The notes beneath the pieces are model-generated. The model was not told the DNA's origin. It searched no databases and saw nothing but the letters and a program-made list of their open reading frames with translations. Both the position numbers and the translations under genes were made by a program. This document shows, piece by piece, positions 6,672 through 46,226 of a stretch of DNA of 64,000 nucleotides; position 1 is the stretch's first letter, and each line of letters opens with the position of its first letter. The DNA is from a virus. The stretch lies in IMG/VR virus record IMGVR_UViG_3300005913_000002. One strand, written 5' to 3'.

Positions 6672-6672
6672 A

Positions 6673-10407: not shown

Positions 10408-10408
10408 A

Positions 10409-10708: not shown

Positions 10709-11976
10709 AGATAACCTTTTCCTGTGAATTCACCTGATAAAAATTTATCAACACTATAATTTTGTATTTCACGTCTACTGTAAATAGGTATTAAACTTAT
10801 TGCTAATACAGAAGATGTGGGTACTAAAGAATTTTCAAACGATGACTTAACCTGTATGTAATCAACTCCATCAGGCAAATCAAATTTAAAACTTTGTATA
10901 GCAACAGGAATATTTCTCAATTGATAATCTCCATACCCTTCTAAACGACATATGGGTGGGGGACTTCCGGCATTTTTATCTGTTCCGAACCGCATCTTAG
11001 TTAGCGCTCTTAATAAATGTTGAACTGCTAACCATTTTATACCATCTTGTTCATTTTGAACTGTAAATTTTCCGTTAATTTGTATAGCAGATACGCTGCT
11101 ATGCTTAAAGAAATATTGTGTATAATTGCTATGAAGAGGATTTACACTTCCATATTGTGCTTGAGTGTCGTAACTAATTTGAGGTGTGTACGGAAATAAC
11201 ACACCTCCTAGTTCAGATAACGACGAGGATTTACCTTTAAGATACTCTGTAGGTACTCTTATCATTACTCTTAAATCTTCAGCACCTGCCCATTTAGCAG
11301 AAGCAGGTTCTGGTTTGGTTAGTTGGGCGCCTGACGGAACTCCGGATGATCTTGGCGATGCAGTCGAATCTGCTTCGTCTGGGTTATTACCGGCAGCATA
11401 TGTTTCTGTACTATCTGCTTCGTCTGGGTTATTACCGGCAGGTGTATTGTTAGGGTCTGCCATTTTTTCAGCAGATTCAATATCAGTAGCAGATTCATTA
11501 GTTGCTTCTGGTGATTTAATAGTCGAAGTAGGGTCTGCTGCTTGGGCAGCATTTGCTTCTCCGTCTGCAACTTGGGCAGCAATATCCGCTTGTTCTTGTA
11601 CCGATATTGCTTCTTCTAATTCTCCGGCTTGCATGTCTACTTCAAAATATGTGGCAGCAGTAGAATTTCTTTCTGCATTTGCTTCGTCTGATTGTTGCTG
11701 CGCTGTGGCAATACGTTTTCGAGATTCCTGCATTGAAGTTTGTACTTCTACAAGCCTTGATTGCAAAGCAGGGTCGTTTGGATTTTGGTTTATTTGCGTG
11801 TTTAATGAATTAACTTCTCTAAGTTTGGCGGACTGTCCTTCGGTAGCAATAACATTTGTCAATGCCGCATATGCAGCATCAGATTTTGCTTTTGCGGCAT
11901 CATAAGCAGGTTTTGCAGCAGTGGCGGCTGCATTAGCATTTGCTAATCTTTGTTTAAGCGAGTCAATGTCGGCCAT
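10705..11976 (-). CDS. Tail tube initiator / baseplate-tube junction protein (gp48/gp54-like) with N-terminal coiled coil
   Basis: C-terminal GVLFPYTPQI...SPPPICRLEGYG...IPVAIQSFKFDLP resembles a tube-initiator fold. ATGA overlap with the gp53-like gene. Confidence 0.55.
   Translation of the reverse strand: MADIDSLKQRLANANAAATAAKPAYDAAKAKSDAAYAALTNVIATEGQSAKLREVNSLNTQINQNPNDPALQSRLVEVQTSMQESRKRIATAQQQSDEANAERNSTAATYFEVDMQAGELEEAISVQEQADIAAQVADGEANAAQAADPTSTIKSPEATNESATDIESAEKMADPNNTPAGNNPDEADSTETYAAGNNPDEADSTASPRSSGVPSGAQLTKPEPASAKWAGAEDLRVMIRVPTEYLKGKSSSLSELGGVLFPYTPQISYDTQAQYGSVNPLHSNYTQYFFKHSSVSAIQINGKFTVQNEQDGIKWLAVQHLLRALTKMRFGTDKNAGSPPPICRLEGYGDYQLRNIPVAIQSFKFDLPDGVDYIQVKSSFENSLVPTSSVLAISLIPIYSRREIQNYSVDKFLSGEFTGKGYL
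11368..11441. repeat. 29-bp exact direct repeat (2 copies, 45-bp period) encoding AGNNPDEAD
   Basis: ATCTGCTTCGTCTGGGTTATTACCGGCAG occurs at 11368-11396 and 11413-11441. Confidence 0.9.
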
Positions 11977-25890: not shown

Positions 25891-27066
25891 ATGTCACAAT
25901 TATTAAACGAAAGATGGTCAGAGACCAAAGACGCTCTGCTTGAAGGCCTACAAGGTACCAAGAGATCCGTAATGGCAACAACTCTTGAGAATACTCGCAA
26001 GTATTTGGCTGAAAGCGCAACTGCTGGTGCAACAAGTTCCGGCAACATTGCAACATTAAACCGTGTTATTTTACCGGTTATCAGACGTGTTATGCCGACT
26101 GTTATTGCTAACGAAATCGTTGGTGTACAGCCTATGACAGGTCCAGTTGCACAAATTCACACTCTACGTGTTCGTTATGCTGATAGCGGCGACGGCATTG
26201 TAGCAGGTGACGAGGCATTAAGTCCATTCAAGATCGCTGCTGCTTATTCTGGTAACAACGTTGATGCAACTCCAAAGGCGCAAACAACTGCTGTTCTAGA
26301 AGGTCGGCCAGGCAAGCGTATGAGCATTCAAATCTTGAAAGCACCAGTTGAAGCGAAGACACGTAAGTTAAGCGCACGCTGGACTTTTGAGGCTGCACAA
26401 GATGCACAATCCATGCAAGGTATTGACATTGAAGCAGAAATTATGGCTGCTCTAGCACAAGAAATTACTGCTGAAATTGACCAAGAAGTACTAGCAAGTC
26501 TACGTTCTTTAGGTTCAGTTGAGCAGACATATGACCAGGCTGCTGTAAGTGGTACTGCTACATTTGTTGGTGATGAGCATGCTGCTTTAGCGATTCAAAT
26601 CAACCGTGTTGCTAACTTGATTGCTCAGCGTACACGTCGTGGTTCTGCTAACTGGGCAGTTGTATCTAACCAGGCTCTAACGATCCTTCAGTCTGCTACA
26701 ACTAGCGCATTTGCACGTACTACAGAAGGTACATTTGAAGCACCTACAAACACTAAGTTTGTTGGTACATTAAACAACAGCATGAGAATTTATGTTGATG
26801 CTTACATGAGTGATGCAGATGACAACAACCAAGTATTAGTTGGATACAAAGGTACAAGCGAAGCAGATGCTGCTGCGTTCTACTGCCCATATATTCCTCT
26901 AATGAGTTCTGGTGTTGTGCTAGATCCAGCAACATTCGAACCAGTAGTTGGCTTTATGACACGTTACGGATATGTTGAGTTAACAAACACAGCATCTTCA
27001 CTAGGTAACGCTGCTGATTACTTAGGTAAAGTTGCTATCACTAGCGCTAACGTAAGTTTCCGTTAA
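25891..27066 (+). CDS. gp23: Major capsid protein
   Basis: RRVMP..IANEIVGVQPMTGP, VEAKTRKL.ARWT.EAAQD, E.TAEIDQE and FYCPYIPL...DP.TFEP.VGF.TRYG. Confidence 0.97.
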   Translation: MSQLLNERWSETKDALLEGLQGTKRSVMATTLENTRKYLAESATAGATSSGNIATLNRVILPVIRRVMPTVIANEIVGVQPMTGPVAQIHTLRVRYADSGDGIVAGDEALSPFKIAAAYSGNNVDATPKAQTTAVLEGRPGKRMSIQILKAPVEAKTRKLSARWTFEAAQDAQSMQGIDIEAEIMAALAQEITAEIDQEVLASLRSLGSVEQTYDQAAVSGTATFVGDEHAALAIQINRVANLIAQRTRRGSANWAVVSNQALTILQSATTSAFARTTEGTFEAPTNTKFVGTLNNSMRIYVDAYMSDADDNNQVLVGYKGTSEADAAAFYCPYIPLMSSGVVLDPATFEPVVGFMTRYGYVELTNTASSLGNAADYLGKVAITSANVSFR

Positions 27067-29941: not shown

Positions 29942-32900
29942 ATGGCCGTAGGTCGAATTACAGGCCCGTTACTCGCAAGCAATTTGCGTCGTGACGGAAT
30001 AGATATCGCAGTTGAAACAGACCTGTTATACATTAATGTTGTTGATGGCCGTATTGGTATCAAAACAGATTCTCCTAGAACCGAGTTAGATGTTAACGGC
30101 ACGTTAACTACTAAAGTATTAATTGCAGACACTGCTACAATTGGACTAGTTACAATTGAAAGTTCTACGTCTAGCAGCACAATTTCCACACTGTTTGGCG
30201 ATATTAATATCAATCCGGGTGGCGGCGACGTTCTAAATATCAATTCTGATACATATGTTGACGGAGATGTTTATGCAACTGGTAATTTCTTTGCTCAAGG
30301 AAACATTAGACTAGGTGATACTACTGGGACCGATGTAATCAGTTTCTTAGGCGAAATTAACACAGACATCCTTCCTTATCTTAGTACAGGAACATATGTA
30401 ACTACCGAAACTGAAAGTGGAACAGTTACTAACTTTATTACTAACACAGAAATTATTTCTGAATATAGTTTAGGTAATACAAGTTCGTATTGGAAAAATT
30501 CTTATCTAGACAACATATATACTAGAAGTATAGATACATTTACAACCGAAACTTCTACTAGTACCACAGCAACTTACGATATACAGTTCTTTCCTGATAT
30601 TCCGTTGTTAGAAAGATCTTTAAACAAGAGTGTTAGTATTAATGGTGATATTCGTGTTTACGGCAATAATCCAGTTGGCACATTTCCTACTGTTAATAAT
30701 ATTTTATATGTTAACGAAAATGGTAGCGACGACAATGACGGTCGAGCAATGGACTCAAGTCGTGCATGCCGTACTATAACTGGCGCCACTCGTAGTCCGT
30801 ATTTTAAACAAGGTACTGTTATTAAAGTGTCTCCCGGATACTATGCAGAAGATAATCCTATTCCGTTATTGCCTTATACTTCTGTTGTTGGAGATAGTTT
30901 ACGTGCAGTATTTGTTGAACCGTTAAACAACACTTTAGATTTGTTTCATGTTAATTCAGGTGTGTATATAACTGGTATGACAATGCTGAATTTAAGTCGA
31001 GGCGAAGTTACAAGATATAAACCAGGCGGTGCGGGAACATATACTACAGGTGCGTACTGTGTTGCATTTCCGCCTAGGTTAGATAATCCAATTGAGTTGT
31101 TTCACAGTCCGTATATTCAAAACTGTACTAATCAATCAGGTCCTTGGTTGTTTGACGGCACAATGTTTGTCCCAAATCAAACAGTTCAACTTCCATTAGT
31201 AGTTACAACATCCAGTTACGAAGCAAATACAACTACTATACTAGTAACAGTCAAACCAGAAATTACGGCTCAGCAAATCGAAGTTGGCATGGCAGTAAAC
31301 GGTACAGGTATTTTAATTGAAGATGATATTACTATTGCAACAGTAGTAGCAATTGAAAATCCTGATACAAATTTTCAAGCGGCAAAAACTCTTTTAGATT
31401 TAAACAAAACATTTATTCAGTCTGAAGTAGTTGCATGGGTTAATGAAACTTATCCTTCTTTATCTTATGACGACGACAAATGTGCAAGAGATGTAGGCTA
31501 CATTGTTGACGCACTAGCAAATGATGCAATTATTGGCGGAAATTTGAAAACAGTAGAAGCAGGTCGTTCGTATTACGAAGGCAATACTGAAATTTTAGGT
31601 AATGAATTGCAACCTACAATTGCATCATTTGGAAGAATTAACGACTTAGCGTTAGATGTAATTTCTAACACATCAACGATTTCAGTTACTTCTGGAACAT
31701 TAATAGCACAAACATTTGATGAAGAACAACTAGGCGGAGAAATAGCATCCGATAACATTACATCATTAGTTGTATTGCTACAAGATATTTTACAAAATCA
31801 ATCCGGGTATGAAAATGCAGCCGCCTTGTTAAATGCTAACAGAGGTTTCTTACAAGCAGAAACAGTTGCATTTGTAAATGAAACATATGTCGGTCAACCT
31901 ATTCCAAGTTTTACATATGACCAAGATAAATGTTTTAGAGATGTCGGATACATTATTGATGCAATTGGAACAGATTTAATTTACGGCGGCAATGAACAAA
32001 GTGTTACAGCAGGAGAAGCATACGCCGGCGGATCTGCAATTATAGGTGAAGTAGATGAAACAGTTGCCGGATTTACATATCTAGCATCATTGGTTAGAGA
32101 TGTAGTACTACAAAATCAAATCATTGATGGATATCAAAATACATTAACTCAAACTACAACATCAACGCTAGTAGGCACTAATGCATCTGTTGAAGCAATG
32201 ACTAATAATGTTGCTTTGATTAATTCATTAATACAAGGAACTGCAGGATCATCTCCTACAGTTATAAACAACGGACAGATAACTACTAATCAAGGCATTT
32301 TGGATAGTTATGCCCTATTAGAAGCCAACAAAGAATTTTTGCAAACTGAAGTAGTTAATTATATCAATGTATCATTTACTAATTTAGATTTTGTTTATAA
32401 TGCGGATAAGTGTGAAAGAGATACTGGATTAATTGTTGACAGCCTTTCAATGGATTTGTTGTATCAAAGTAATAGTAACTCAACATTTGCCGGACTTCAA
32501 TACTGGAATCAAGATAATTTTGCAAGTGAAATTGCAGGAGAAGTTACTACAACTACTAATGCATTTGCATATGCAAGCAATATTTGCCAAGACATCATAC
32601 AAAATTTTACTGTTACTCCGTTCCAAACTGATATTGACCAAGACTTTAGCACAACTGCTTCTACTACAGCAGAAGCAATTGCATTGTCAACTAACTTTAA
32701 CAAAATAATAGATATTATTACAAATGGTCCAGCAGGAATAACTGACGATATTGTACCAAACGATGTAGCATCTAATTCAGATAATATTGTTTGGGCAGTA
32801 GAAAATTTAACTAAAAATAAAGAATTCATTCAAGAAGAAGTTGTAGCCTGGGTAGAAGCAAATAAAGATTCAGGGTTTGTGTACGATCAAGAATTATGTC

Positions 32901-35900
32901 GTAGAGATGCAGGATATATTGTTGACTGTGTAACTTTAGATTTATTACATGGCGGCAATAGACAAAGTATTCAAGCAGGTGTATATTACTACGGATACGA
33001 TAGCACAAGTACAGTATTAATTAACGAAATTCCTCAAACTGTTGCTGCATATGCATACATGAAACAACTAATTGAAAAAGTTGTTCAACGCATTTCTGCC
33101 ACTAAAACGTATCAATCAGAAGTTGAACAAAATTTAGATACTACTGGTGCAACATTACAAGAAGCAAGATTTATTTCTAATAATTTAGATATCATTAGAA
33201 ATATTATTAGACAAGGTCCCAATGTTGCTCCTCCTAAAGTACCGTTGCCTACAACTGCAAGCACATTGCCTAACGTTTTTAATGCTTATCGATTATTAAA
33301 TGCAAATAGAGATTTTATTAAAGCAGAAGTTGTTGCATATGTAGATACTACTTTTATTCAACCTTACGAATTTAGATATAATGAACCTAAATGTTTCCGT
33401 GACGTAGGACTTATTATAGATTCAATTGCATTTGATATTACTAGACGATCAAATGTAAATTCATTAGAAGCGGGATTGGCATACTGGGACGGAGCAGTAA
33501 GTGTTATTGATGGGCAGTTAGGAGAAACTGCTGGAGCAATACAGTATACAAAAAATTTAGCGTTAGAAATTATTGCCAATAATCCAGTAACATCTTTTTA
33601 TCAAACTACTCGTGAGATATTAATACCTGGCACAAGTTCTACAACTGTAACTTCATTAGTATCTCAAATTATTAATCCGGAATTAAACGGAGGCGGTATT
33701 GCACGAAACTTAGTAGACAGTAATTTTAATGCAATTACTACTATTATTAAAGAAGGACCTGCGTTTGCACCGTTTAGTACAGAATCAACACTAACACAAT
33801 TTATTATACATTTAAGTACTTCTACAATTGCTACAGCAACTAATGATCTTATGTACTTTGGTGAAGTTACTACATACCCTGTTGAAGATAAAAAAATGCC
33901 AGGAGAATGGAGCGAAAACGGTTTTGCAGATCGTCGTCTTAATCCAAATGGTTCTGGAGGTGGAGCCTTAGTTGACGGTAACGCTCCAAGCCGTACAAGT
34001 CCAATTCAATCATTTGTGTTTGATGCGTTCACGCAAATTACGCAAGGCGGCCGAGGAATACATATTATTAACGAAGGTTATGCACAGTTGGTTTCGGTGT
34101 TTACTATTTTCTGCGATCAAGCAGTAACTGTAGAAAGTGGAGGCATTGCATCTGTTACAAACTCAAACAATAACTTTGGTGATTTGACATTATTAGCAAC
34201 AGGGTATGGTCCGAGAAAATTTGGCGGTACTATATATAATCCTAAAAATATTGCATACAACCCAGTAGATAATATATTTGAACCTAATGAATATTTTCCG
34301 TTAGGTTATTTTCCAACTAATCAACAAATTTGCGTATTTGTTCCTGATCCTGACAATCGTCCACATATTAGTTTAGTAATGGAAATTCAACCTCCTGATA
34401 AATTTGTAAATTATGATAACGAAGTTGTTCCTTATGTTAATGCTGAAGGATTTCCAGGATTTTTAACTGCTATTGCTAATACAACAACATTAACTACAAG
34501 TAGTTACACTATTAGCGGTATTGACACTACTGGCATTGCTGTAGGTCAAACAATATATGTAAGAGATCAATTTGGATACCAAGCAGACGATAATGGCGAA
34601 GGAGAGCAATACATTACTACTGGTACAACAGTTGTTGATGTTACTTTTCAAACTATACATTTAAGTAATCCAATTAATCAGGGTGGCGGCCAGTATGATA
34701 ATCCGTTCTACTTTAATATATATGCTTGCGGTAACGCTTACTACAACGTACTAACAAGTATTATTGCATCTAGTCCTTATCCAACAGGACAGAGTAAAAT
34801 TCTTGGACAAGAAACTGAAACTATCTCAGCAATCAATTATATGAAAGCAGTTACAAACAATGTTATTCAAAATATTGCAATGACTGCTACATTTTCATCT
34901 GCTACTATACAAGTAATTGATACAAGTTTACCGGGCGGCAATAATGCATTAGGACTAATTGAATCTAATATAGGTATCATTACTAATGTTATTCTGTCAG
35001 GACCCCAAGCAGCCCCTGAAGTTGCAACAACTGGGACTGCAATTCCTTTTAAAGAAAATATTGTTCAATTGATAGAAAAAAATAGATATTTTATCATGGA
35101 CGAAGTAGTTGGATTTGTTGATACTACTTTTGGCGGATTTCAATACAATGAAATAAAATGTGAAAGAGATACCGGATTAATTGTTGAAGCGTTGGCATTT
35201 GACTTGTTGTACGAAGGTACTTCACAAAGTACATTTGCCGGACTACAATATTGGAATCAAGGTAACTATACCGGTTCAGTTGTAGATGAGATTACTACTA
35301 CTACTGATGCAATTAATTATGCAAAAAGCCTTTCAGTAAGTATTGTACAAGCAGCATCAAATTCTACTGTTGCACAAACTGTGTCTAATAGATTTGATGA
35401 TATCACTAATTTGTTGACAAACGGTATAGACGGTGTAACTGATACTATAATTTCTAATAGTACTGCTACTTCTGATTCAAATATTATAGCAGGGTATGAT
35501 GCATTGATTGCAAACAAATCAGCAATTCAAACAAATACTATAAATTGGATTAATGCCAACTACCCTGGATTTAGTTACGATACTGTTACTTGCGAACGTG
35601 ACGTAGGATACATTATCGACAGTGTTGCATTTGATTTATTACATGGTGGCAACAAACAAAGCATAACAAGCGGAGTTTATTACTACGGTTACACGGGCAG
35701 TACTGCTATACCGAATGAAATACCTCAAACTACTGCTGCATATAATTTTATTAAAGCAATAGTAGGTGATATTGTAACAGGCACACCGATTAGTCCTAAG
35801 TTTCAATCTGCTGTAGCACAAGTTACTAACTTAGAACCTGCTACTGAAACAGAAGCAGTTATTATTAGATCAAATGTTGATTTAATTACAAATATTATTA

Positions 35901-36544
35901 ACACAGGCCCTGTAGGAATTTCTCAAGTACCAATTGGGTTGACTGCATCAACTTCAACTGCTGTACAACAAGCATTTGATTTGCTAATTGCAAATAAAGA
36001 ATTTATTAAAGCAGAAGTTATTGCATATATTGACAACGAGTTTGGTAGTTTTGAATATAACAGACAAAAATGTCGAAGAGATGTTGGATTAATTATTAAT
36101 GCTTTACAAGCAGATATTTTATCTGGCGGTAATTTTAGAGCAGTAGAAGCAGCAAAAACTTATTACTCTAAAGAAGGTACTTATCATATTGTTACATTAG
36201 AAGACAATGTAAGAGATCAATTATTATTTGTTGATGGTTGTACAGTAAACTTCTATCAACGTTCATACATGAGTGCTAGTGGCTACTTGTTTGAATATTG
36301 TGGCGCAGGCACTAACTACGGTGCTTTACCCCAAGTAGGCAGAGTTGATCCAAATCAGAGCAAGGAAGTAGTTCAGTTAAATAATGGTAAGGTGTTCTTT
36401 ACATCAACAGACCAAAACGGAGATTTCCGAATTGGTCCTGGTTTAGTAATTAGTCAAGCAACTGGCGTGCTAAGTGGAAGAACATTTGAGAAGAGTTTAT
36501 TTGCACAGATGACACCATTCATCTTAGCAGTTGAAGCAGGTTAA
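29942..36544 (+). CDS. Giant virion protein (2200 aa): beta-helix-like scaffold with 8 phycobiliprotein/globin-like repeat domains
   Basis: YVNENGSDDNDG...ACRTI and SPYIQNCT scaffold motifs; 8 copies of Y(D/N)xxxCxRDxG; C-terminal GKVFFTSTDQNGDFRIG. Confidence 0.75.
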   Translation: MAVGRITGPLLASNLRRDGIDIAVETDLLYINVVDGRIGIKTDSPRTELDVNGTLTTKVLIADTATIGLVTIESSTSSSTISTLFGDININPGGGDVLNINSDTYVDGDVYATGNFFAQGNIRLGDTTGTDVISFLGEINTDILPYLSTGTYVTTETESGTVTNFITNTEIISEYSLGNTSSYWKNSYLDNIYTRSIDTFTTETSTSTTATYDIQFFPDIPLLERSLNKSVSINGDIRVYGNNPVGTFPTVNNILYVNENGSDDNDGRAMDSSRACRTITGATRSPYFKQGTVIKVSPGYYAEDNPIPLLPYTSVVGDSLRAVFVEPLNNTLDLFHVNSGVYITGMTMLNLSRGEVTRYKPGGAGTYTTGAYCVAFPPRLDNPIELFHSPYIQNCTNQSGPWLFDGTMFVPNQTVQLPLVVTTSSYEANTTTILVTVKPEITAQQIEVGMAVNGTGILIEDDITIATVVAIENPDTNFQAAKTLLDLNKTFIQSEVVAWVNETYPSLSYDDDKCARDVGYIVDALANDAIIGGNLKTVEAGRSYYEGNTEILGNELQPTIASFGRINDLALDVISNTSTISVTSGTLIAQTFDEEQLGGEIASDNITSLVVLLQDILQNQSGYENAAALLNANRGFLQAETVAFVNETYVGQPIPSFTYDQDKCFRDVGYIIDAIGTDLIYGGNEQSVTAGEAYAGGSAIIGEVDETVAGFTYLASLVRDVVLQNQIIDGYQNTLTQTTTSTLVGTNASVEAMTNNVALINSLIQGTAGSSPTVINNGQITTNQGILDSYALLEANKEFLQTEVVNYINVSFTNLDFVYNADKCERDTGLIVDSLSMDLLYQSNSNSTFAGLQYWNQDNFASEIAGEVTTTTNAFAYASNICQDIIQNFTVTPFQTDIDQDFSTTASTTAEAIALSTNFNKIIDIITNGPAGITDDIVPNDVASNSDNIVWAVENLTKNKEFIQEEVVAWVEANKDSGFVYDQELCRRDAGYIVDCVTLDLLHGGNRQSIQAGVYYYGYDSTSTVLINEIPQTVAAYAYMKQLIEKVVQRISATKTYQSEVEQNLDTTGATLQEARFISNNLDIIRNIIRQGPNVAPPKVPLPTTASTLPNVFNAYRLLNANRDFIKAEVVAYVDTTFIQPYEFRYNEPKCFRDVGLIIDSIAFDITRRSNVNSLEAGLAYWDGAVSVIDGQLGETAGAIQYTKNLALEIIANNPVTSFYQTTREILIPGTSSTTVTSLVSQIINPELNGGGIARNLVDSNFNAITTIIKEGPAFAPFSTESTLTQFIIHLSTSTIATATNDLMYFGEVTTYPVEDKKMPGEWSENGFADRRLNPNGSGGGALVDGNAPSRTSPIQSFVFDAFTQITQGGRGIHIINEGYAQLVSVFTIFCDQAVTVESGGIASVTNSNNNFGDLTLLATGYGPRKFGGTIYNPKNIAYNPVDNIFEPNEYFPLGYFPTNQQICVFVPDPDNRPHISLVMEIQPPDKFVNYDNEVVPYVNAEGFPGFLTAIANTTTLTTSSYTISGIDTTGIAVGQTIYVRDQFGYQADDNGEGEQYITTGTTVVDVTFQTIHLSNPINQGGGQYDNPFYFNIYACGNAYYNVLTSIIASSPYPTGQSKILGQETETISAINYMKAVTNNVIQNIAMTATFSSATIQVIDTSLPGGNNALGLIESNIGIITNVILSGPQAAPEVATTGTAIPFKENIVQLIEKNRYFIMDEVVGFVDTTFGGFQYNEIKCERDTGLIVEALAFDLLYEGTSQSTFAGLQYWNQGNYTGSVVDEITTTTDAINYAKSLSVSIVQAASNSTVAQTVSNRFDDITNLLTNGIDGVTDTIISNSTATSDSNIIAGYDALIANKSAIQTNTINWINANYPGFSYDTVTCERDVGYIIDSVAFDLLHGGNKQSITSGVYYYGYTGSTAIPNEIPQTTAAYNFIKAIVGDIVTGTPISPKFQSAVAQVTNLEPATETEAVIIRSNVDLITNIINTGPVGISQVPIGLTASTSTAVQQAFDLLIANKEFIKAEVIAYIDNEFGSFEYNRQKCRRDVGLIINALQADILSGGNFRAVEAAKTYYSKEGTYHIVTLEDNVRDQLLFVDGCTVNFYQRSYMSASGYLFEYCGAGTNYGALPQVGRVDPNQSKEVVQLNNGKVFFTSTDQNGDFRIGPGLVISQATGVLSGRTFEKSLFAQMTPFILAVEAG

Positions 36545-36562
36545 GAATAAAGGAAACATATT

Positions 36563-36949
36563 ATGGCATTAATTCCATTAAACACATTTAAGACAAAAAC
36601 AAGAGTTTTAGATACAAATACAACAGCATCAGTATATGTTGCACCAATTGGCGTTACATCTATTGTGTTAATGGCTCAAGTTGCAAACACAGATCCTAGT
36701 GCATCTCACACTATTACATTTAGTCATCACAGACGATTTAGAGTATTGCCAGATGCACAAGGAAATAACGCACAAGATCCTAACGTTACTACAGAATTAG
36801 TAATGGACTTTGAAATTCCGCCAAATGATTCTGCAAGTTTAATTACTGGTAAAATGATTTTAGAAGCACAAGATAGTATTCGTGCATACGCAGACTCAAA
36901 CGGTCCTCTAAAACTTGTATTAAGTATCTTAGAAACAGCCAATAACTAA
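36563..36949 (+). CDS. Small beta-sandwich virion protein, paralog of 28755..29072
   Basis: AAGGAA RBS; shares the motif pattern of 28755..29072. Confidence 0.65.
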   Translation: MALIPLNTFKTKTRVLDTNTTASVYVAPIGVTSIVLMAQVANTDPSASHTITFSHHRRFRVLPDAQGNNAQDPNVTTELVMDFEIPPNDSASLITGKMILEAQDSIRAYADSNGPLKLVLSILETANN

Positions 36950-36980
36950 TAGTAATTTTTGATTTTTAAAGAGAACACTA

Positions 36981-39900
36981 ATGCCACGTTTATTAAGTAA
37001 TAGAAGACCTGTATTAAGACCAGAAGATTTAAAAGAAGATCGATGGGATTATCTAAATTTAGAAAATGCACAACCTGCATTAGGAGTAGCACCTACGGCT
37101 AATGAAGGTTATACATTACAAACTGACGAAGATGGCAAAGTAACTTGGACAAATACGTTAGGTAGGTTAGCGTTTGAAGATCAAACAATTACTGCGACTG
37201 AAAACGGTACAGACATTACTATAAGTGGCATCGATACAGAATCTGAAATTATTTTAAGTCCGTTTCAACGACTACAAATAAATGGCGACGCAGTAGTTAC
37301 TGGTGATTTTACAGTAGAAGGAAATCCTTTAGGTACTTATCCTATTGTTCCGCAAACATTATATGTTACTCCTGATGGCGATGATAGAAATGACGGATCT
37401 GCATTAGATGCAAGTCGTGCGTGTCGTACTATTAGTGGTGCTGTTCGTAGTCCTTTGTACATTCCGGGAACATCTATTAAAGTTGCAGCAGGCGCATACT
37501 TTGAAGATAATCCAATTCCTTTAAAACCTTATACTTCTGTTGTTGGTAACGATTTACGGACAACTTTTATTGAACCGTTAAATAAAGATTTAGATTTATT
37601 TCACGTAAACAGTGGCGTTTATATTGCTCAGATGCAAATGCGTAATTTACGCAGGGGCGAAGTAGAACGATATGCACCTGGCGGCGCAGGCACGTATACT
37701 ACAGGTGCTTATGCAGTGGCATTTCCGCCGAGCCTGGATAATCCAATTGACTTATACCATTCTCCTTACATTCAAAACTGTACTAACCAATCCGGGCCTT
37801 GGCTAAAAGATGGAACAATGTTTGTTCCAAACCAAACTGTACAAATTCCTTTAGGCGCAGGGACTAGTACATGGGTCGCTAATCAATCTACTATTACTGT
37901 GACATTGTACACAGGAACAGTTGCAGTTGGCATGGCAGTAAACGATGAAGCAAACGAAGGATACCGTAACGCTCAATTGTTACTACAAAGAAATAAAACA
38001 TTCTTACAAAGTCAAGTAGTTGCTTGGATTAATAATGAGTATCCAGGTTTAGATTACAACCAAGATTCGTGCTATCGTGATGTAGGGTTTATTATTGATG
38101 CAGTATCAGGAGATGCTAGATTTGGCGGAAATAAACGAAGTATTGAAGCAGGCTTAGCATACTGGAGCGGTGTAACAACATTAATTCCTGGAGAAATAAA
38201 TGAAACTGCAAATGCAATTCAATATTTAAAATCCATATCTGCAGATGTTGTTATTAACAATGCAACATCAGTTACTTTATACAGCACATCTACTAATCAA
38301 GTTATAGATTTAAATCTTGATAAAGGTTCAGTTGTACAAACACGTATTGCTACAAGTTATGATTTAATTTCTACTATCGTAACTAACGGAGAAATCGCAG
38401 TACCTAATACAGTAGATGATTTAGTAGGATTAATATATCCTACAGGGCTAAGTCCTAATGAAGTTAACGTAGCATCTACTGTTACATCAGTTAACATGAT
38501 TGCTCAAAATACTTACGAAGTAATGTTAAGTAGGCCAACTGTGGCTGCAAGTGATGATGCAAGAATTTATTTTGGATACACTACTACCTATCCTTACTTA
38601 GATGCAGAAGTTCCGCCGGAGTGGCAAGTTGATGACGGCGAACAATACGCTATTAGAACTTTAGATCCAACCGGTGCTGGAGGTGGAGCCCTAGTTGACG
38701 GTAACGCTCCCAGTGAGCGTAGCCCAATTCAATCATTTGTGTTTGATGCGTTCACGCAATTGAACCAAGGTGGTAATGGTATACATATTATCAACAACGG
38801 CTACGCACAGTTAGTTTCTGTGTTTACAATTTTTTGCTCTAACGCAGTTATTGTTGAAAATGGAGGCATTGCTTCCATTACTAACTCTAACAGTAACTTT
38901 GGTGATACATGTTTAACTGCTAAAGGATTAGGCAAACTTGCAAGTCAAGGATTTGTCCGAAACCCCGCATACCCTACAAACGTTCCAAACGGAGAATATT
39001 ATCCGCTAGGTTTTTGGCCAAACAGTCAGCAAATGGAAGTATTTCTTCCTAACGATCTAGATCGTCCGCACATCGGTCAAGTTATGGAAGTAGTTCCACC
39101 TGATACATATATTGATTTTGCAGGAAATCGTGTTCCGTATGTTAATGAAGTAGGATATCCTGGTTACTTGGTCTCTACTTCTAATACCGGTTCTATTACA
39201 ACTAGCAGTTATATTATTAGCGGCATTGATGTTACTAACATTGCAGTAGGTCATACTCTGTATATTCGAGATGTATATGGTTCTGAAGTTCATCCAGAAA
39301 CTGGAGAACCTTATGTAACTACTGGTACTCAAGTTGTTGATGTACAATTTAAAACAGTAGTTTTAGACCGTCCAATTCTAAACGGATATACTGACACTAA
39401 TTTTAATTATTTTAATCTGTATTTTGCAGGAAATGCTTACTACACAGTGTTATCTAGCACAATCGATAGTGCGCTATCATCGACTGTGTCTAATCAAGTT
39501 ACTCTAGTACCCGGACAAGAAACTACAACAAGTTTAGCAGTAAGTTATGCTAAAGATATTGCATTAAGAGTTATTCAAAATGTTCCTATAACTGGATTTG
39601 TGTACGACAAAGTAAAATGTGCTCGAGATACTGGTATTATTGTAGACACAGTTGTTGCAGATTTAATGTTTAGCGGTACAGGACCATTTACTCAAGCAAA
39701 CTTTTCTGGATTGCAATATTGGAATCAAGATGGGTATGTCGGCGATATTGCTAACGAATTAACCACTACTACTAATGCAATCAAATACGTAAAAGAACTA
39801 GCCTATAACGTTGTATTAGGTAACACAACTTCTACACCTTATCAATCTACTGTAACGCAAAATTTAAGTTTACCAGTTGCTACAGGCACAGAAGCCTCTG

Positions 39901-42900
39901 CAATCAGAACTGATTTTCAAGTTATCATAGACATATTGGAAAATGGCACTGCTGGCGTAACTGATATTGTAGTTGCAAATGGAATCGATATATTAAATGC
40001 AGATGCACAAAAGGCCTACGATTTATTACAAATTAATAAAAGTTTTATTCAAGCAGAAGCAGTTGCTTATGTAGAAAGTACTAAAGAAAGCGGATTTGAA
40101 TACGATCAAGAAAAATGCCTACGTGATGTAGGATATATGATTGATTCAGTCGCCCACGATACTTTATACGGCGGAAATAGACAGGCGATTCAAAGCGGTG
40201 TATTCTATTACGGATTCTCAAATACTCAAAGTGCGGTCGAAAACGAACAAGCACAAACTTCAGCAGCGTTTAATAAACTAAAAGAAATTATTCCTCTTAT
40301 TATTACTAATGTAGAAATTACTCCTACTATTAATAATACAGCAACTCAGATAACAAATTTAACAAGTTCTACTATTGCAGTTGCAGGTATTACTAATAAT
40401 ATTATAAGTTTAATAACTGATATAATTACAGAAGGACCAGATGTAGCAATTGAAGGATTGCCAATTGGCCAAACACGAACTACTAATATAGATACAGAAG
40501 CAGCCGCAACTATACTTCTTGCAAACAGAGACTTTATTAAATCAGAGACTATTGCATGGGTAGACAAATATTACGGAACAGGTTTTGTTTATGATCAAGC
40601 CAAATGCTACCGTGATACCGGGTTAATTGTTGATGCTATCGCAACTGACTTATTGTATCCTACTGATGAAAAAAGTCAAACTACTTTTGCTGGATTGCAG
40701 TATTGGAACCAAGCAGGGTATATTGGAGACATTTCTAGAGAACTTACTACTACAACTAATGCAATTAAGTATGCAAAAACTGTAGCAGCCGAAGTTGTTC
40801 AAGGAATTACTACAGGTACAAGATACCAAAGCACTGTTACACAAAATGCAGCAAGCACTTTTGCAACTGCTGTTGAAGGAAATATTGTTGCGGCAGATTT
40901 TGATGTGATTATTGACATTTTAGTTGACGGTACTGCCGGTGTAACTGACAAAATCGTTCCAAATGGTGTACAATCTATCGACACTGCAACAATTAATGCA
41001 TACACATTACTTGTTAACAATAAAGAATATATTCAAAGCGAAACTATTGCTTATATTGAAGCAACTAAATTTGATTACGACGAAGAAAAATGTTATAGAG
41101 ATAGTGGTCTAATTGTAGACGCTATTGCATTAGATTTATTATACCCAACTGATACTTACAGTCAGTCAACTTTTGCAGGCCTTCAGTACTGGGATCAGAA
41201 CGGTTACACAGGTAGCATTGCTGGAGAATTAACAACAACTACTAATGCTATTACTTACGTCAGCGCTCTTGCACAATTAATTGTTCAAAATGATGAAAGC
41301 GGCACACGCTACCAGAGTACTGTTACTCAAAATACAAGTTTAGATGCAGCATCGTCGGCTGCTGCGTTAATAATTGATACTGATTTTGCAGTAATCACTG
41401 ATATATTAACTAACGGCACTGATGGAGTAACGGATACTATTGTTCCTAACAATATTGCGGAAAGCACTGTTACTGATGTTATTAATGCTTACAATTTATT
41501 AGTTCTTAACAAAGAATATCTGCAAGCCGAAGCAGTTGCATATGTAGAAAGCACAAAGACTAGTGAGTTCGAATATGATCAAGAGTTATGTTTCCGTGAT
41601 ATTGGATACATAGTTGACTCAGTTGCATTTGATTTACTGCACAGCGGAAATAAACAAGCAGTTCAAAGTGGTGTTTACTACTACAGTTTTAATGCCAACA
41701 GCACAGCAATTCCTAACGAAATTCCACAGACTCTGCAGGCATTTAACTTTATTAAAGAAATATCTCAGCGCATTGTAACAAATACAACTGGAACAAATTA
41801 TCAAAGTACTGTTACTCAAAATACTAGTTTAACTGCTGCAACAAGTTTTGAATCAGAAATTTTAGGAAGAGCAATTAATACTATTACTAATATTATTAGT
41901 GATGGACCTAGCGTAGTAACTGCAAAAACTCCTATTAGTTTAGATGCTAGCGGCGATGTAAACAAACTTCGTGCAGCATTGATACTAGAAATCAATAGAG
42001 ATTATATTCAAGCAGAAACTGTTGCATTTGTAAATCAAACTCAGCGATTTATATACGATCAAGAGTTATGTTTCCGTGATGTCGGATACATGGTTGACTC
42101 AGTTGCGTTTGACTTATTGCATCCTTTACATGACGGTATACCTAGTAATAGACAGGCAATTCAAAGCGGTGTATACTATTACGGTTTTAGTGATACATCA
42201 AGTGCAATTGCAGGAGAAATACCACAAACTACTGCGGCGTATAATTTTATTAAAGGATTATTGCCATACGTTGTAACAGGCGAAAATGCAATTCCTCAGC
42301 AGCCGTTTATTACACAAACTACAAGTACATCAGTGGGTACAAGTAATGAAATTTTAGATGTTCAAAATAGTATTGATACTATTGTAAACATCATTAATAA
42401 CGGTCCTGGAGTTGCAAACGAAAAAGTACCTGTAAGTTTAACAAAAGACACTAGTACAGATGTATATAATGCATATCAATTGCTGGTTGCTAACAGACAG
42501 TTTATACAAGAAGAAACTATTGCTTATATTAATAATAATTTTAAATTTGGAAGTTATCAAAATATTACTGAACAAGTATTTGATTACGATCTTAGTGGCG
42601 GCGAACGAGCATTAACTTCATTGGAAGAAAAATTTGATATTATTGCTGATATTATTAAGGATGGTGCAGACTCAAGTCCAACAATACGTAAGCCTAGACA
42701 GTATGTTGATAGCAACCAAGGTGTATTAAATGCTAGAAGATTATTAGAAAAGAATAGAAACTTTATTCAAGAAGAAGTTGTTGCCTATGTTGATAATTTA
42801 TGGCCTAGCAAGTTTAGTTACGATCCTGTTAAATGTAGTCGTGACACAGGATTAATTGTTGATGCACTTGCTCAAGATATATTATTTGACGGCAACACCC

Positions 42901-45900
42901 AATCGACATTTGCCGGGTTACAGTATTGGAATCAAGATACTGTACTTTTTCCTAGTGAGCAAACAACAACAACTAATGCTGTTCGTTATCTAAAAGATAT
43001 TGCAACAAAGGTAATAACAAATAACACTAGCGGTTACAGATACTCTACTAGTACACAGATTGAAAATACAAGTACTGCAACAATTGCTGTAATTTCTAAT
43101 ATACAGGCAGGATTTGATCTTATAATCGACATCTTAGAAAATGGAACAGCCAGAATTACTGACCGTATTGTTCCGAATAATTTAAATCAAAGTGAAATAT
43201 TGGCTGTTCGTTCTGCATACGAATCATTGCAGTCCAATAAGAGTTCAATACAAACCGAAGTTGTTGAATATATCGATCAAACAAATAATTTTGTTTACGA
43301 TGAGGCAAAATGTTTTCGTGACACTGGGTTAATTGTTGATGCTATTGCATTAGATATGAAGTATCCGACTACTGGCGACAGTCAATCAACATTTGCAGGT
43401 TTACAGTATTGGAATCAAGGCGGATACACTGGGTCAATTGCTAGTGAATTAACCACTACTACAAATGCAATTAATTATCTAAGCGGTCTTGCACAAAAAG
43501 TTATTGTTAATAGTCTAACTGGTACTCGTTATCAATCTACAGTTACTCAAACAACTAGTACAAGTGTAGGTACCGCAGCCGAATCTGCAATTATTGGTAC
43601 TAACTTTACATTTATTACTGATATTTTAACAACAGGCACAACAGGAATTACTGATTTAATTGTTCCAAATGGCAGACCAAGTCTAAATGCTAATGTTTCT
43701 AATGCATACAATTTGCTAATTGAAAACAAAGAATATTTACAAGCAGAAGTAGTTGCATATGTAGAAAGCACTAAAGAGGAAGGATTTGAATACAATCAAG
43801 ATAAATGTTTCCGTGATGTAGGATACATGGTAGATAGTGTTGCATTTGATCTAGTACATGGAGGAAATAAACAAAGTATACAAAGTGGTTTTTATTATTA
43901 CGGATACGATTCAACAAGCACAGCAATTGTTAACGAAATACCTCAAACAACTGCTGCTTACAATAGAATTAAAGAAATTATACCGTTTATTGTTCAGAAC
44001 GAAATTGTATCTGTAAGTCAAGGCAACACAGCAACGCAGGTAACATATATGTTACCTGCTACTATAACACAGGTAGGCGTACTACAAACTAAAATTGATA
44101 GAATTACTGAAATAATTAACAATGGTCCAAGTGCTGCTCCTGAATTAGAACCAATAAGTTTAACTGCTGATACTGATCCGTTAGTAGATCGTGCATATGA
44201 TATTTTAGTTGCAAACAGAGATTTTATTAAAGCAGAAATAGTTGCATATGTTAATCAACAATTTACTGGATTTGAATATGATAGAGAAAAATGTTTCCGT
44301 GATGTAGGTTACATGTTAGATTCTGTAAGTTTTGATCTGTTGTATAGTGGTAACAGGCAGGCTGTGCAAAGTGGTGTTTATTATTACGGATACGATTCAA
44401 CAAGCACAGCAATACCAAAAGAAATTCCTCAAACAACTGCTGCTTACAATTTCATTGAAAGAATTGTGGGAGATATTGTAACTGGTACATTAATAACAAC
44501 TCCACAACAATATACTGTTGTTCAAGTTGTTAGCGATGATGTAGCAAGCGAAGATGAAGCACAAATGATTCGTGACAATGTAAACTTTATTAATTCAATT
44601 ATAGAATTTGGTCCAGATCAAGTTACGGTTAAGGAACCAATTAGTATTACAGAAACACAAGACGTAAAAATGCGAAATGCTGCATATTTGTTAAATGCTA
44701 ACAGAGAATTTATTCGTGCAGAAACAATTGCATTTATTAATAACACATATCAAACTGGTTTCTTATATGATAAAACTAAGTGCCAACGTGATACTGGATT
44801 AATTGTTGATAGCATTGCATTTGACTTATTGCACGACGGTGTGACTGAAAGTACATTTGCCGGATTGCAATATTGGAATCAAGATACATATGTTGGGTCA
44901 GTAAGAGGCGAAATTACAACAACTACAAATTCTATCCGTTACATTAAAGAATTAGTAGCAGATGTAATTGTTAACAATGAAATTAGTTCAACTGTTGGTA
45001 ATACTGCTACTCAAAATACAAGTTTACCTGCAACTACCGTTGGTATTGCAACGTTAGTAACAGGCAATGTTGATATTATTTTAAATATTTTAGCAAATGG
45101 CACGGCAGGAGTAACAGATATTATTGTTCCTGATAGTACTTCTTCTAATAGAGAAGATATTAATCGTGGATATAACTTATTAATGGCAAATAAAGAATTT
45201 ATCCAAGATGAAGTAATTGCCAGAATTGATTATGACAACACTGAATTTGATTATGATAGAACAGTTTGCCGCCGAGATATAGGATACATTGTTGATAGTC
45301 TAGCATTTGACTTGTTGCACGAAGGCAATAGACAAAGTGTAACAAGCGGAGTTTACTATTATGGATTTGATGCAGCCGACACCGTAATCGATAATCAAGT
45401 TTCTCAAACAACTGCTGCGTATGATAGAATTAAAGATATTGTAGGAAGTATTGTTAAAGCAGAAGCAGTTAATCAAACATATCAATATAAAGTTAAACAA
45501 GTATTGAGTACGAATACTGCTACTGATTCAGAAGTAGTTGTTTTACAAGAAAAAATTGACATCATTACTGACATTATTAACAACGGTCCAGAACAAGCAG
45601 GAGCACAAACTCCAATCGATCATGTTGCAAGTACAAGTACTTCAGTTATTAATGCATTTGATTTATTAATTGCAAATAAAAACTTTATTAAAGCAGAAGT
45701 TGTTGCATATATTGATGCGAAATATACTGATACTCCTAATTATGACAGAGATAAGTGTTATAGAGATGTAGGCGCTATTATTGATGCAGTAGGTTACGAT
45801 GTTGCTTATGGCGGTAATTATAATTCAGTTAATACAGGTAACGGTTATTTTAATAGAAAAGGTCAGTATCATATTGTTCGATTAGAACAAAACGTTACTG

Positions 45901-46226
45901 ATCCTACATTGTTTATTGATGGTGCTACTGTAAGATTTTATCAGCAGAGTTATATTTCCGCAAGTGGATATTTGTTTGAGTATGTTGGTGCCGGTACACA
46001 GTACGGAGCGTTACCACAAGTTGGTAAGGCTGATCCTGTACAAGAGAGAGAAGTAGTTCAGTTAAATAATGGTAAGGTGTTCTTTACATCAACAGACCAA
46101 AACGGAGACTTTAGAATTGGCCCAACGCTGGTTATTAGTCAAAGCACTGGTGTGTTGGCAGGTCGTACATTCGAGAAGAGTTTGTATGCTACAATGACAC
46201 CGTTTATCTTAGTGGTAGGAGCATAA
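36981..46226 (+). CDS. Giant virion protein (3081 aa), paralog of 29942..36544, with 14 phycobiliprotein/globin-like repeat domains
   Basis: Same scaffold motifs as its paralog; 14 copies of Y(D/N)xxxCxRDxG. Confidence 0.75.
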   Translation: MPRLLSNRRPVLRPEDLKEDRWDYLNLENAQPALGVAPTANEGYTLQTDEDGKVTWTNTLGRLAFEDQTITATENGTDITISGIDTESEIILSPFQRLQINGDAVVTGDFTVEGNPLGTYPIVPQTLYVTPDGDDRNDGSALDASRACRTISGAVRSPLYIPGTSIKVAAGAYFEDNPIPLKPYTSVVGNDLRTTFIEPLNKDLDLFHVNSGVYIAQMQMRNLRRGEVERYAPGGAGTYTTGAYAVAFPPSLDNPIDLYHSPYIQNCTNQSGPWLKDGTMFVPNQTVQIPLGAGTSTWVANQSTITVTLYTGTVAVGMAVNDEANEGYRNAQLLLQRNKTFLQSQVVAWINNEYPGLDYNQDSCYRDVGFIIDAVSGDARFGGNKRSIEAGLAYWSGVTTLIPGEINETANAIQYLKSISADVVINNATSVTLYSTSTNQVIDLNLDKGSVVQTRIATSYDLISTIVTNGEIAVPNTVDDLVGLIYPTGLSPNEVNVASTVTSVNMIAQNTYEVMLSRPTVAASDDARIYFGYTTTYPYLDAEVPPEWQVDDGEQYAIRTLDPTGAGGGALVDGNAPSERSPIQSFVFDAFTQLNQGGNGIHIINNGYAQLVSVFTIFCSNAVIVENGGIASITNSNSNFGDTCLTAKGLGKLASQGFVRNPAYPTNVPNGEYYPLGFWPNSQQMEVFLPNDLDRPHIGQVMEVVPPDTYIDFAGNRVPYVNEVGYPGYLVSTSNTGSITTSSYIISGIDVTNIAVGHTLYIRDVYGSEVHPETGEPYVTTGTQVVDVQFKTVVLDRPILNGYTDTNFNYFNLYFAGNAYYTVLSSTIDSALSSTVSNQVTLVPGQETTTSLAVSYAKDIALRVIQNVPITGFVYDKVKCARDTGIIVDTVVADLMFSGTGPFTQANFSGLQYWNQDGYVGDIANELTTTTNAIKYVKELAYNVVLGNTTSTPYQSTVTQNLSLPVATGTEASAIRTDFQVIIDILENGTAGVTDIVVANGIDILNADAQKAYDLLQINKSFIQAEAVAYVESTKESGFEYDQEKCLRDVGYMIDSVAHDTLYGGNRQAIQSGVFYYGFSNTQSAVENEQAQTSAAFNKLKEIIPLIITNVEITPTINNTATQITNLTSSTIAVAGITNNIISLITDIITEGPDVAIEGLPIGQTRTTNIDTEAAATILLANRDFIKSETIAWVDKYYGTGFVYDQAKCYRDTGLIVDAIATDLLYPTDEKSQTTFAGLQYWNQAGYIGDISRELTTTTNAIKYAKTVAAEVVQGITTGTRYQSTVTQNAASTFATAVEGNIVAADFDVIIDILVDGTAGVTDKIVPNGVQSIDTATINAYTLLVNNKEYIQSETIAYIEATKFDYDEEKCYRDSGLIVDAIALDLLYPTDTYSQSTFAGLQYWDQNGYTGSIAGELTTTTNAITYVSALAQLIVQNDESGTRYQSTVTQNTSLDAASSAAALIIDTDFAVITDILTNGTDGVTDTIVPNNIAESTVTDVINAYNLLVLNKEYLQAEAVAYVESTKTSEFEYDQELCFRDIGYIVDSVAFDLLHSGNKQAVQSGVYYYSFNANSTAIPNEIPQTLQAFNFIKEISQRIVTNTTGTNYQSTVTQNTSLTAATSFESEILGRAINTITNIISDGPSVVTAKTPISLDASGDVNKLRAALILEINRDYIQAETVAFVNQTQRFIYDQELCFRDVGYMVDSVAFDLLHPLHDGIPSNRQAIQSGVYYYGFSDTSSAIAGEIPQTTAAYNFIKGLLPYVVTGENAIPQQPFITQTTSTSVGTSNEILDVQNSIDTIVNIINNGPGVANEKVPVSLTKDTSTDVYNAYQLLVANRQFIQEETIAYINNNFKFGSYQNITEQVFDYDLSGGERALTSLEEKFDIIADIIKDGADSSPTIRKPRQYVDSNQGVLNARRLLEKNRNFIQEEVVAYVDNLWPSKFSYDPVKCSRDTGLIVDALAQDILFDGNTQSTFAGLQYWNQDTVLFPSEQTTTTNAVRYLKDIATKVITNNTSGYRYSTSTQIENTSTATIAVISNIQAGFDLIIDILENGTARITDRIVPNNLNQSEILAVRSAYESLQSNKSSIQTEVVEYIDQTNNFVYDEAKCFRDTGLIVDAIALDMKYPTTGDSQSTFAGLQYWNQGGYTGSIASELTTTTNAINYLSGLAQKVIVNSLTGTRYQSTVTQTTSTSVGTAAESAIIGTNFTFITDILTTGTTGITDLIVPNGRPSLNANVSNAYNLLIENKEYLQAEVVAYVESTKEEGFEYNQDKCFRDVGYMVDSVAFDLVHGGNKQSIQSGFYYYGYDSTSTAIVNEIPQTTAAYNRIKEIIPFIVQNEIVSVSQGNTATQVTYMLPATITQVGVLQTKIDRITEIINNGPSAAPELEPISLTADTDPLVDRAYDILVANRDFIKAEIVAYVNQQFTGFEYDREKCFRDVGYMLDSVSFDLLYSGNRQAVQSGVYYYGYDSTSTAIPKEIPQTTAAYNFIERIVGDIVTGTLITTPQQYTVVQVVSDDVASEDEAQMIRDNVNFINSIIEFGPDQVTVKEPISITETQDVKMRNAAYLLNANREFIRAETIAFINNTYQTGFLYDKTKCQRDTGLIVDSIAFDLLHDGVTESTFAGLQYWNQDTYVGSVRGEITTTTNSIRYIKELVADVIVNNEISSTVGNTATQNTSLPATTVGIATLVTGNVDIILNILANGTAGVTDIIVPDSTSSNREDINRGYNLLMANKEFIQDEVIARIDYDNTEFDYDRTVCRRDIGYIVDSLAFDLLHEGNRQSVTSGVYYYGFDAADTVIDNQVSQTTAAYDRIKDIVGSIVKAEAVNQTYQYKVKQVLSTNTATDSEVVVLQEKIDIITDIINNGPEQAGAQTPIDHVASTSTSVINAFDLLIANKNFIKAEVVAYIDAKYTDTPNYDRDKCYRDVGAIIDAVGYDVAYGGNYNSVNTGNGYFNRKGQYHIVRLEQNVTDPTLFIDGATVRFYQQSYISASGYLFEYVGAGTQYGALPQVGKADPVQEREVVQLNNGKVFFTSTDQNGDFRIGPTLVISQSTGVLAGRTFEKSLYATMTPFILVVGA

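Follow-up and report, generated by a model that had tools for sequence, protein, structure and literature searches.

Two giant fibre-type phage proteins with tandem domains that resemble bilin-binding globins and keep a C-x-R-D site

A stretch of 64,000 nucleotides from the virus record IMGVR_UViG_3300005913_000002 of IMG/VR, called here the window, was analysed for two giant open reading frames (ORFs) on its + strand. The ORFs at 29942-36544 and 36981-46226 encode proteins of 2200 and 3081 amino acids (aa), referred to as protein 1 and protein 2, which feature 8 and 14 repeats with the motif C-x-R-D, respectively. These lengths and counts had been reported in an earlier annotation made from the DNA letters alone (the sequence-only reading) and are seen in the translations. 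Both products are very probably fibre-type proteins built of tandem bilin-globin cores that retain the C-x-R-D site. The repeats are, with the same confidence, homologues of the bilin-binding globins, a group formed by the phycobiliproteins (PBPs) and their paralogues the bilin biosynthesis-associated globins (BBAGs), reduced to a six-helix core. The organization of the two genes is the following, where E-values of repeats refer to a hidden Markov model (HMM) of the repeat.

29942..36544, + strand: protein 1 (P0001), giant fibre-type protein with 8 PBP-like repeats; phrog_5342 3.6e-107, phrog_4527 1.6e-88
30665..31138, + strand: N-terminal non-repeat part of protein 1 (aa 242-399), with a homologous counterpart in the N-terminal part of protein 2; best stretch to phrog_29288
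31355..33748, + strand: repeats 1-5 of protein 1 (Cys 514, 664, 824, 986, 1151); each E 2e-46 to 3e-62
34004..34207, + strand: central non-repeat segment of protein 1, conserved core, aa 1355-1422, separating the two repeat arrays; best stretch to phrog_5342 'tail fiber protein'
34733..35038, + strand: partial repeat, C-terminal half only, HMM positions 81-156; E 2.5e-11
35033..36427, + strand: repeats 6-8 of protein 1, repeat 8 being of the 'terminal' subtype that runs into the C-terminal domain; from the repeat HMM and subtyping
36230..36535, + strand: conserved C-terminal domain of protein 1, aa 2097-2198, common to cyanophage tail fibre proteins; phrog_3442, phrog_17885 'tail fiber protein'
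36563..36949, + strand: small ORF of 128 aa between the giants; phrog_1276 2.4e-10, no significant Pfam family and no lyase-like family
36981..46226, + strand: protein 2 (P0002), giant fibre-type protein with 14 PBP-like repeats; phrog_5342 2.2e-121, phrog_4527 3.3e-117
37944..38426, + strand: repeat 1 of protein 2 (Cys364), standing alone with a non-repeat part on either side; E 2.2e-52
38730..38930, + strand: central non-repeat segment of protein 2, conserved core, aa 584-650; best stretch to phrog_5342
39492..42425, + strand: repeats 2-7 of protein 2, subtypes B A B B A A; from the repeat HMM and subtyping
42444..42698, + strand: truncated repeat, HMM positions 2-34 and 114-154 matched, middle with the Cys helix unmatched; from a six-frame HMM scan
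42708..46112, + strand: repeats 8-14 of protein 2, subtypes B B A A B A followed by the terminal type; from the repeat HMM; repeat 11 (44166-44648) is the modelled domain
45921..46214, + strand: conserved C-terminal domain of protein 2, aa 2981-3078; phrog_3442, phrog_17885

The C-x-R-D motifs are spaced by 144-166 aa within the arrays, with a repeat unit of ~160 aa. The first motif Cys of protein 1, whose codon the sequence-only reading placed at nucleotide 31481, is indeed Cys514; the others are found at positions 664, 824, 986, 1151, 1740, 1884 and 2044. The motif accommodates 22 of the 36 cysteines present in both giant proteins. In their alignment the 22 window repeats share 25-52% pairwise identity, and positions Y38, C43, R45, D46, G48, D57 and Y73 are invariant. 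A six-frame scan of the whole window with the repeat HMM located all repeats in the two giant ORFs and revealed also two partial copies there, a half copy (34733-35038) and a truncated one (42444-42698). The latter explains the 255-aa gap between Cys1697 and Cys1952 of protein 2.

Relatedness to PBPs was assessed with 12 real chains of phycocyanin, phycoerythrin and allophycocyanin from cyanobacterial plasmids, which replaced the approximate phycocyanin sequence given in the sequence-only reading. Residues C84, R86, D87, R93, Y97 and G102 are invariant in their alignment, as is Asp13. C-x-R-D is present in all 22 window repeats and aligns to C84, R86 and D87. When a profile of the 22 repeats was searched against 177,635 PDB sequences, the two top ranks went to phycocyanin alpha (E 0.049 and 0.26), with the alignment at the Cys84 helix, and the gap-free match between K-C-x-R-D and G-G that had been noticed at the outset was reproduced by HMMER. 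Comparison of the window repeats with the 12 PBPs by hhalign gave 73% (P 3e-5). A deep profile composed of 265 family repeats with less than 45% mutual identity reached 93.7% (P 1.9e-7) over 97 columns, with repeat positions 7-104 on PBP positions 38-143 and Cys on Cys84. Reversed profiles remained below 1% in the same comparison, and the top score of 60 block shuffles, some of which kept the motif, was 31.8 versus 45.9 for the real profile. An HMM of PBPs matches 131 of 1546 repeats at E <= 1e-3, some of them spanning PBP positions 40-159, and no reversed repeat sequence at E <= 0.01. The Pfam family of PBPs, PF00502, matches three giant proteins of the family (P0074, 3.6e-20; P0017, 3.9e-13; P0021, 2.1e-8). 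Its gathering score of 22.2 bits is passed by a 157-aa fragment, P0160, with 27.0 bits over profile positions 26-149, while a repeat from the relative G005, whose major capsid protein (MCP) is 90% identical to that of the window, scores 25.9 bits.

The fold of repeat 11 of protein 2 (44166-44648) was predicted with AlphaFold2 from an input alignment that held only the 22 window repeats. The model (predicted local distance difference test, pLDDT, 85.8; predicted template modelling score, pTM, 0.82) has six helices that represent the globin core A-H (helices A, B, E, F, G and H) without the X-Y hairpin. The top 50 Foldseek matches in the PDB are nearly all PBPs, with template modelling (TM) scores of 0.62-0.69 and a best E of 2.6e-3. 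Because these E-values alone are weak, weight is given to the Z-scores of VIA-align and to the make-up of the hit lists. VIA-align places model residues 1-147 on residues 31-177 of a PBP beta chain with Z 17.3 and a root-mean-square deviation of 1.9 A over 132 residues; the 50 entries shown are PBPs except for one that bears just the title 'Bacterial fluorescent protein'. When 48,161 representative chains were searched exhaustively by fold, ranks 1-8 went to PBPs or the ApcE bilin domain (Z 12.6-15.6), followed by photocobilins, whose globin domains are related to the photoglobin/BBAG-2 lineage (Z 11.8), globin-coupled sensors (Z ~11), RsbR (Z 10.6) and haemoglobins (Z 6-8). This order parallels the published tree of bilin-binding globins (PMC10151467). 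A two-domain model of a B-A pair of repeats (43185-44162; pLDDT 69.7, pTM 0.65) contains two copies of the six helices with a linker of low confidence between them. The matches of the model in BFVD are giant structural proteins of cyanophages and uncultured phages (TM 0.75-0.88), none of which is described as globin- or PBP-like, and a feature search in the ESM Atlas returned scores of at most 0.84, to unnamed viral clusters.

Convergence would mean that an unrelated helical repeat carries C-x-R-D by chance and that AlphaFold was drawn to the PBP fold by this motif. Several observations weigh on that side. Identity to PBPs is only 12-16%, and the best Foldseek E-value is the modest one given above. 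Also counted against the main reading are the inclusion of PBPs in the training of AlphaFold and the fact that the window's own repeats stay below the PF00502 cut-off (best E 0.04, in 1 of 22). Pfam gave nothing meaningful on the whole giant proteins, and phmmer found nothing with protein 1 in the PDB. Masking of the motif reduces the PBP-HMM matches at E <= 1e-3 from 131 to 2. At E <= 0.1, nevertheless, 22 masked repeats are matched versus 2 in the reversed control, so that most of the HMM signal, not all of it, lies in the motif. Convergence also fits poorly with a 97-column hhalign alignment that beats all motif-keeping shuffles, with HMM alignments that extend over PBP 40-159, with family members that exceed a curated Pfam threshold over profile positions 26-149, and with a Z of 17.3 over 132 residues with all six helices in order. 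It is considered highly improbable.

The phage domains and the light-harvesting PBPs (PF00502; C-phycocyanin, phycoerythrin, allophycocyanin and the ApcE bilin domain) have in common the six-helix globin core, a similar domain length and C-x-R-D on the equivalent helix followed by the conserved Gly of position 102. They differ in the X-Y hairpin, found only in PBPs (the model covers PBP residues 31-177), and in the PBP-invariant residues Asp13, Arg93 and Tyr97, none of which is kept in the repeats; Arg93 aligns with a conserved Asp and Tyr97 with a variable position. Hairpin and residues serve the pairing of alpha and beta chains at their interface in PBPs. Since the hairpin and Arg93/Tyr97 are lacking, the phage domains are regarded as bare bilin-globin cores rather than whole subunits. 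The proposal of the sequence-only reading, that the virion displays arrays of globin-fold PBP-like domains keeping the Cys, is sustained as far as the arrays, the fold and the Cys are concerned (hhalign, PF00502 on family members, AlphaFold, Foldseek and VIA-align). It withstood each of its own proposed checks that was run, among them the profile-profile and single-repeat fold comparisons and the search for bilin genes, and needs one correction, as to the equivalence of a repeat with a complete subunit. A further difference is that PBPs are free subunits of 160 aa, whereas the phage domains are covalently linked, 3-39 copies at a time, in structural proteins of 700-6400 aa.

The repeat family comprises 1457 representatives (clusters at 50% identity) at E <= 1e-3, of which 640 at E <= 1e-30; there are 3-39 repeats per protein and the longest protein has 6382 aa. 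Among 1527 family repeats the Cys of the motif is kept in 96.1%, the Arg in 96.3%, the Asp in 98.9% and all three in 94%. The three residues are lost jointly 14 times, when 0.024 cases are expected under independence. Judged from this pattern, the triad is under strong joint constraint, which favours, as circumstantial evidence, bilin binding by the repeats. A different ligand such as haem or a metal in the pocket, or inter-chain disulfides of the Cys that cross-link the fibre, are rather unlikely explanations of the site. The globin fold itself, the Z of ~11 to haem-binding sensor globins and the presence of one conserved Cys per domain would agree with them. No proximal histidine is found among the invariant positions, though, bilin-binding PBPs and photocobilins outscore all haem globins, the Arg-Asp pair beside the Cys is a bilin signature, and a disulfide role leaves the joint loss of Arg and Asp with Cys unexplained.

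A location of the giant proteins in the virion is inferred from PHROG and GenBank annotations and from the position of their genes in the structural module. Their PHROG families (phrog_5342, 4527, 701, 3442 and 17885) are tail fibre or virion structural ones, and the ORFs sit between a gene for a major head protein of T4 type (25891-27066) and genes of the baseplate wedge (51273-57617). In tblastn against 50,697 phage records protein 1 matched 252, all of cyanophages or uncultured marine viruses, and the matched genes carry tail fibre or structural protein annotations; a megablast of its ORF against the phage collection yielded no match, and an exact 50-mer taken from the window did not occur in IMG/VR. 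The giant fibre or structural proteins of T4-like cyanophages (S-PM2 p091, B23 gp322, the S-CAM1 tail protein; PHROGs 5342, 4527 and 701) belong to the same repeat family and are annotated only as tail fibre or structural proteins. S-PM2 p091 and B23 gp322 have five C-x-R-D repeats each, and S-PM2 encodes a second repeat-bearing giant protein.

The window phage, unlike these, is no cyanomyovirus by its capsid protein. The product of 25891-27066 is 67-72% identical to that of jumbo phages of proteobacteria (PBECO4/Rak2 type, Vibrio phage 2.275.O and Sinorhizobium phage Phosso), and IMG/VR relatives with 79-90% capsid identity have genomes of 330-380 kb when complete. By capsid similarity and genome size of its kin the phage is therefore a jumbo T4-like myovirus. 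Its virion module is a mosaic: the capsid resembles that of proteobacterial jumbo phages, and among cultured phages only cyanophages supply matches to the fibre proteins. An ordinary cyanophage was considered and rejected on the basis of the capsid protein, of the absence of psbA in 18 of 18 repeat-bearing relatives and of non-cyanobacterial matches in metagenome-assembled genomes (MAGs) of GTDB. The latter are 14 contigs with the repeat, binned into MAGs of Sphingobacteriaceae, Crocinitomicaceae, Rhodobacteraceae, Chitinophagales, Verrucomicrobiales, a Poseidoniaceae archaeon and others, none of them cyanobacterial; most likely they are phage contigs.

The sequence-only reading had recommended a search for bilin genes elsewhere in the genome. 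No haem oxygenase (HO, PF01126) or ferredoxin-dependent bilin reductase (FDBR, PF05996) gene was found by tblastn in the 64-kb window, while close relatives do encode the pair. A cassette, defined as adjacent HO and FDBR genes, occurs in 6 of 18 repeat-bearing relative contigs of at least 100 kb: in 3/3 at a completeness of at least 80%, in 2/4 at 60-79% and in 1/11 below. In the reverse test, 10 more large contigs were selected by a PcyX-like FDBR; 7 of them bear the repeats, including 5/5 at a completeness of at least 55%. Cassette and repeats are found together in all four records that are at least 90% complete (G001, G014, G024 and G028), of which G014 has a capsid identity of only 37% and represents a separate lineage. 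The nearest cultured homologue of the relatives' FDBR is the PcyX-type gene of Pelagibacter phage Mosig. The occurrence of HO and FDBR in the relatives favours circumstantially that the repeats bind a bilin. In G001 the cassette lies ~145 kb away from the repeats of the fibre proteins.

Cassettes of this type are known from work of Ledermann and Frankenberg-Dinkel on phage hemO with pcyX or pcyA (PMC11480375), and large freshwater phages of methanotrophs carry the same hemO and FDBR gene pair (bioRxiv 10.1101/2020.02.13.942896); the close relatives of the window phage have exactly such adjacent genes. In phages of heterotrophs these genes were described as enigmatic in purpose, and a BBAG partner was mentioned as one option (PMC11480375). 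Both papers describe the enzymes and no phage-encoded acceptor protein, for which the repeat proteins are candidates. BBAGs, paralogues of the PBPs, occur in heterotrophic bacteria and also in some cyanobacteria, in association with HO and FDBR genes and outside a photosynthetic context; BBAG-1 and BBAG-3 carry CXRD and attach bilin without lyases (Rockwell, Martin and Lagarias 2023, PMC10151467). At genome level this is paralleled by relatives of the window phage that have HO and FDBR and no known lyase. The likeness is drawn from the published description of BBAGs, which are single soluble proteins encoded beside an FDBR, in contrast to the tandem fibre arrays of the phages, not adjacent to the cassette. 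Relative to the PBPs, the phages also lack a photosynthetic context, judged by psbA, and genes of CpeT- or CpeS-type lyases in the relatives examined.

The non-repeat segments of the fibre proteins are interrupted by the 22 tandem domains of ~160 aa on flexible linkers. In the mechanism proposed, HO and FDBR of the phage would produce a linear tetrapyrrole in the infected cell, which the domains probably take up during assembly, and the bilin would be attached to the Cys without a lyase, as in BBAG-1 and BBAG-3. The outcome would be a fibre studded with bilins, whose pigments might act in light sensing for adsorption, in photoprotection or in stabilisation of the domains. The complete proposal, bilin loading included, with the bilin coming from the phage cassette or from the host, is plausible but is given slightly less than an even chance. 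A generalization is put forward tentatively, in which the fibres of this clade of jumbo phages and those of many T4-like cyanophages, S-PM2 among them, would be biliproteins that bind bilin covalently or tightly in the virion. Under this generalization the bilin would derive from phage HO and reductase or from the cyanobacterial host, and there would be dozens of chromophores per virion.

Purely structural exaptation is weighed here as the principal alternative; the sequence-only reading had likewise raised ligand binding as one option beside a purely structural role. It holds that rigid globin beads, descended from bilin-binding globins, set the length and flexibility of the fibre, that C-x-R-D persists because folding or contacts among domains or chains need it, and that no chromophore is bound. 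Such a pigment-free module is nearly as likely as bilin loading. The copy number of 3-39 per fibre-type protein is that expected for a length-setting module, and the linkers are of low confidence in the two-domain model. The best-conserved repeat positions, Asp58 (99%) and Tyr74 (98%), have no known PBP counterpart and are not bilin residues of PBPs, while Arg79/80, Arg93 and Tyr97 of PBPs are not kept. CpeT (PF06206) was absent in 10 relatives and CpeS (PF09367) in 5, with a positive Synechococcus control (E/F-type lyases were not searched), and no lyase-like family was found among the ORFs that neighbour the giants in the window. Phage Mosig has HO and PcyX and no such repeats, showing that the enzymes are useful without these domains; for the same reason the idea that HO and FDBR always travel with the repeats was discarded. 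The cassette is attributed to the window phage from relatives with 79-90% MCP identity because the window shows none. The number of independent co-occurrences is small, since most of the contigs concerned belong to one clade: the main clade, G011/G012 (79% MCP identity) and G014. Many repeat-bearing cyanophages lay outside the check for bilin genes. To our knowledge coloured phage particles have never been reported. All this speaks against bilin loading.

A structural role, in turn, has difficulty with the following. No function of Cys84, Arg86 and Asp87 other than that of chromophore ligands is known in PBPs (PMC10151467). A solitary Cys is difficult to explain structurally when the protein is extracellular; the triad is lost jointly and not piecemeal; and the bilin pathway is present in every near-complete relative despite the lack of psbA.

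A role of bilin-loaded fibres in light sensing during adsorption is less likely than bilin binding and is considered improbable. A connection to the light-dependent adsorption of phages S-PM2 and P-HM2 is speculative, although fibre proteins of S-PM2 are members of the repeat family.

Light-harvesting subunits are the classical form of PBP-type globins, to which the soluble BBAGs, whose function is unknown, were added in 2023. In the phage fibre proteins this domain, its predicted bilin site intact, is the chief component. A search of open-licence PMC papers and bioRxiv yielded no account of PBP-like or globin domains in fibres of phages. If bilin loading is true, the 'enigmatic' hemO/pcyX cassettes of phages gain a phage-encoded acceptor. 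Two questions become testable, why phages, including those of non-photosynthetic hosts, carry HO and bilin reductase genes, and what causes light-dependent adsorption in some cyanophages; cultured carriers of the repeats such as S-PM2 exist. Even without pigment the domains would be the first globin-fold module of tail fibres, and the finding bears on the unresolved origin of PBPs.

Apart from a few odd copies, the repeats fall into subtype A (C-x-R-D-V-G-Y ... S-G-V-Y-Y-Y-G), subtype B (C-x-R-D-T-G-L ... F-A-G-L-Q-Y-W-N-Q) and the terminal type. The series from repeat 2 to repeat 13 in protein 2 (39492-45623) is B A B B A A B B A A B A, which written as brackets reads (), (()), (()), (). Protein 1 has B-A at repeats 3-4 and 6-7. 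The order suggests that B-A cassettes were inserted between an existing B and A, or that B pairs with A by folding back.

The N-terminal, central and C-terminal non-repeat segments are homologous between both giants, with motifs G-G-A-L-V-D-G-N-A-P-S and Y-L-F-E-Y-x-G-A-G-T, and the central segment of protein 1 (aa 1355-1422) recurs at aa 584-650 of protein 2. Non-repeat stretches cover 29942-31354, 33749-35032, 36981-37943, 38427-39491 and both C-termini. The N-terminal part of protein 1 is probably beta-helix-like by its sequence pattern, and the equivalent part of the relative P0017 matches DUF1565. The globin arrays look as if they had been inserted between parts of one scaffold of a putative beta-helix-like fibre.

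Two more giant ORFs are found downstream. That at 51273-57617 (2114 aa) is baseplate-wedge-like (phrog_13163, 1.1e-154), and the other, at 57656-64000, is cut off by the end of the window (more than 2115 aa). PBP-like repeats are absent from both.

In the 328-kb relative G001 the cassette is located among genes for Hsp20, ClpS, CsgF, CsgG (the curli secretion channel) and proteins with FecR and PA14 domains (locus L088, G001:158000-170000, 4641-11601), an auxiliary gene set that is unusual for a phage. In the complete 383-kb relative G024 (IMGVR_UViG_3300042868_005134) PBP-like domains occur also singly or in pairs, in short ORFs of 296, 381 and 750 aa (101697-102158, 225984-226418 and 51695-52546). 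Their products could be soluble, BBAG-like versions of the fibre domain.

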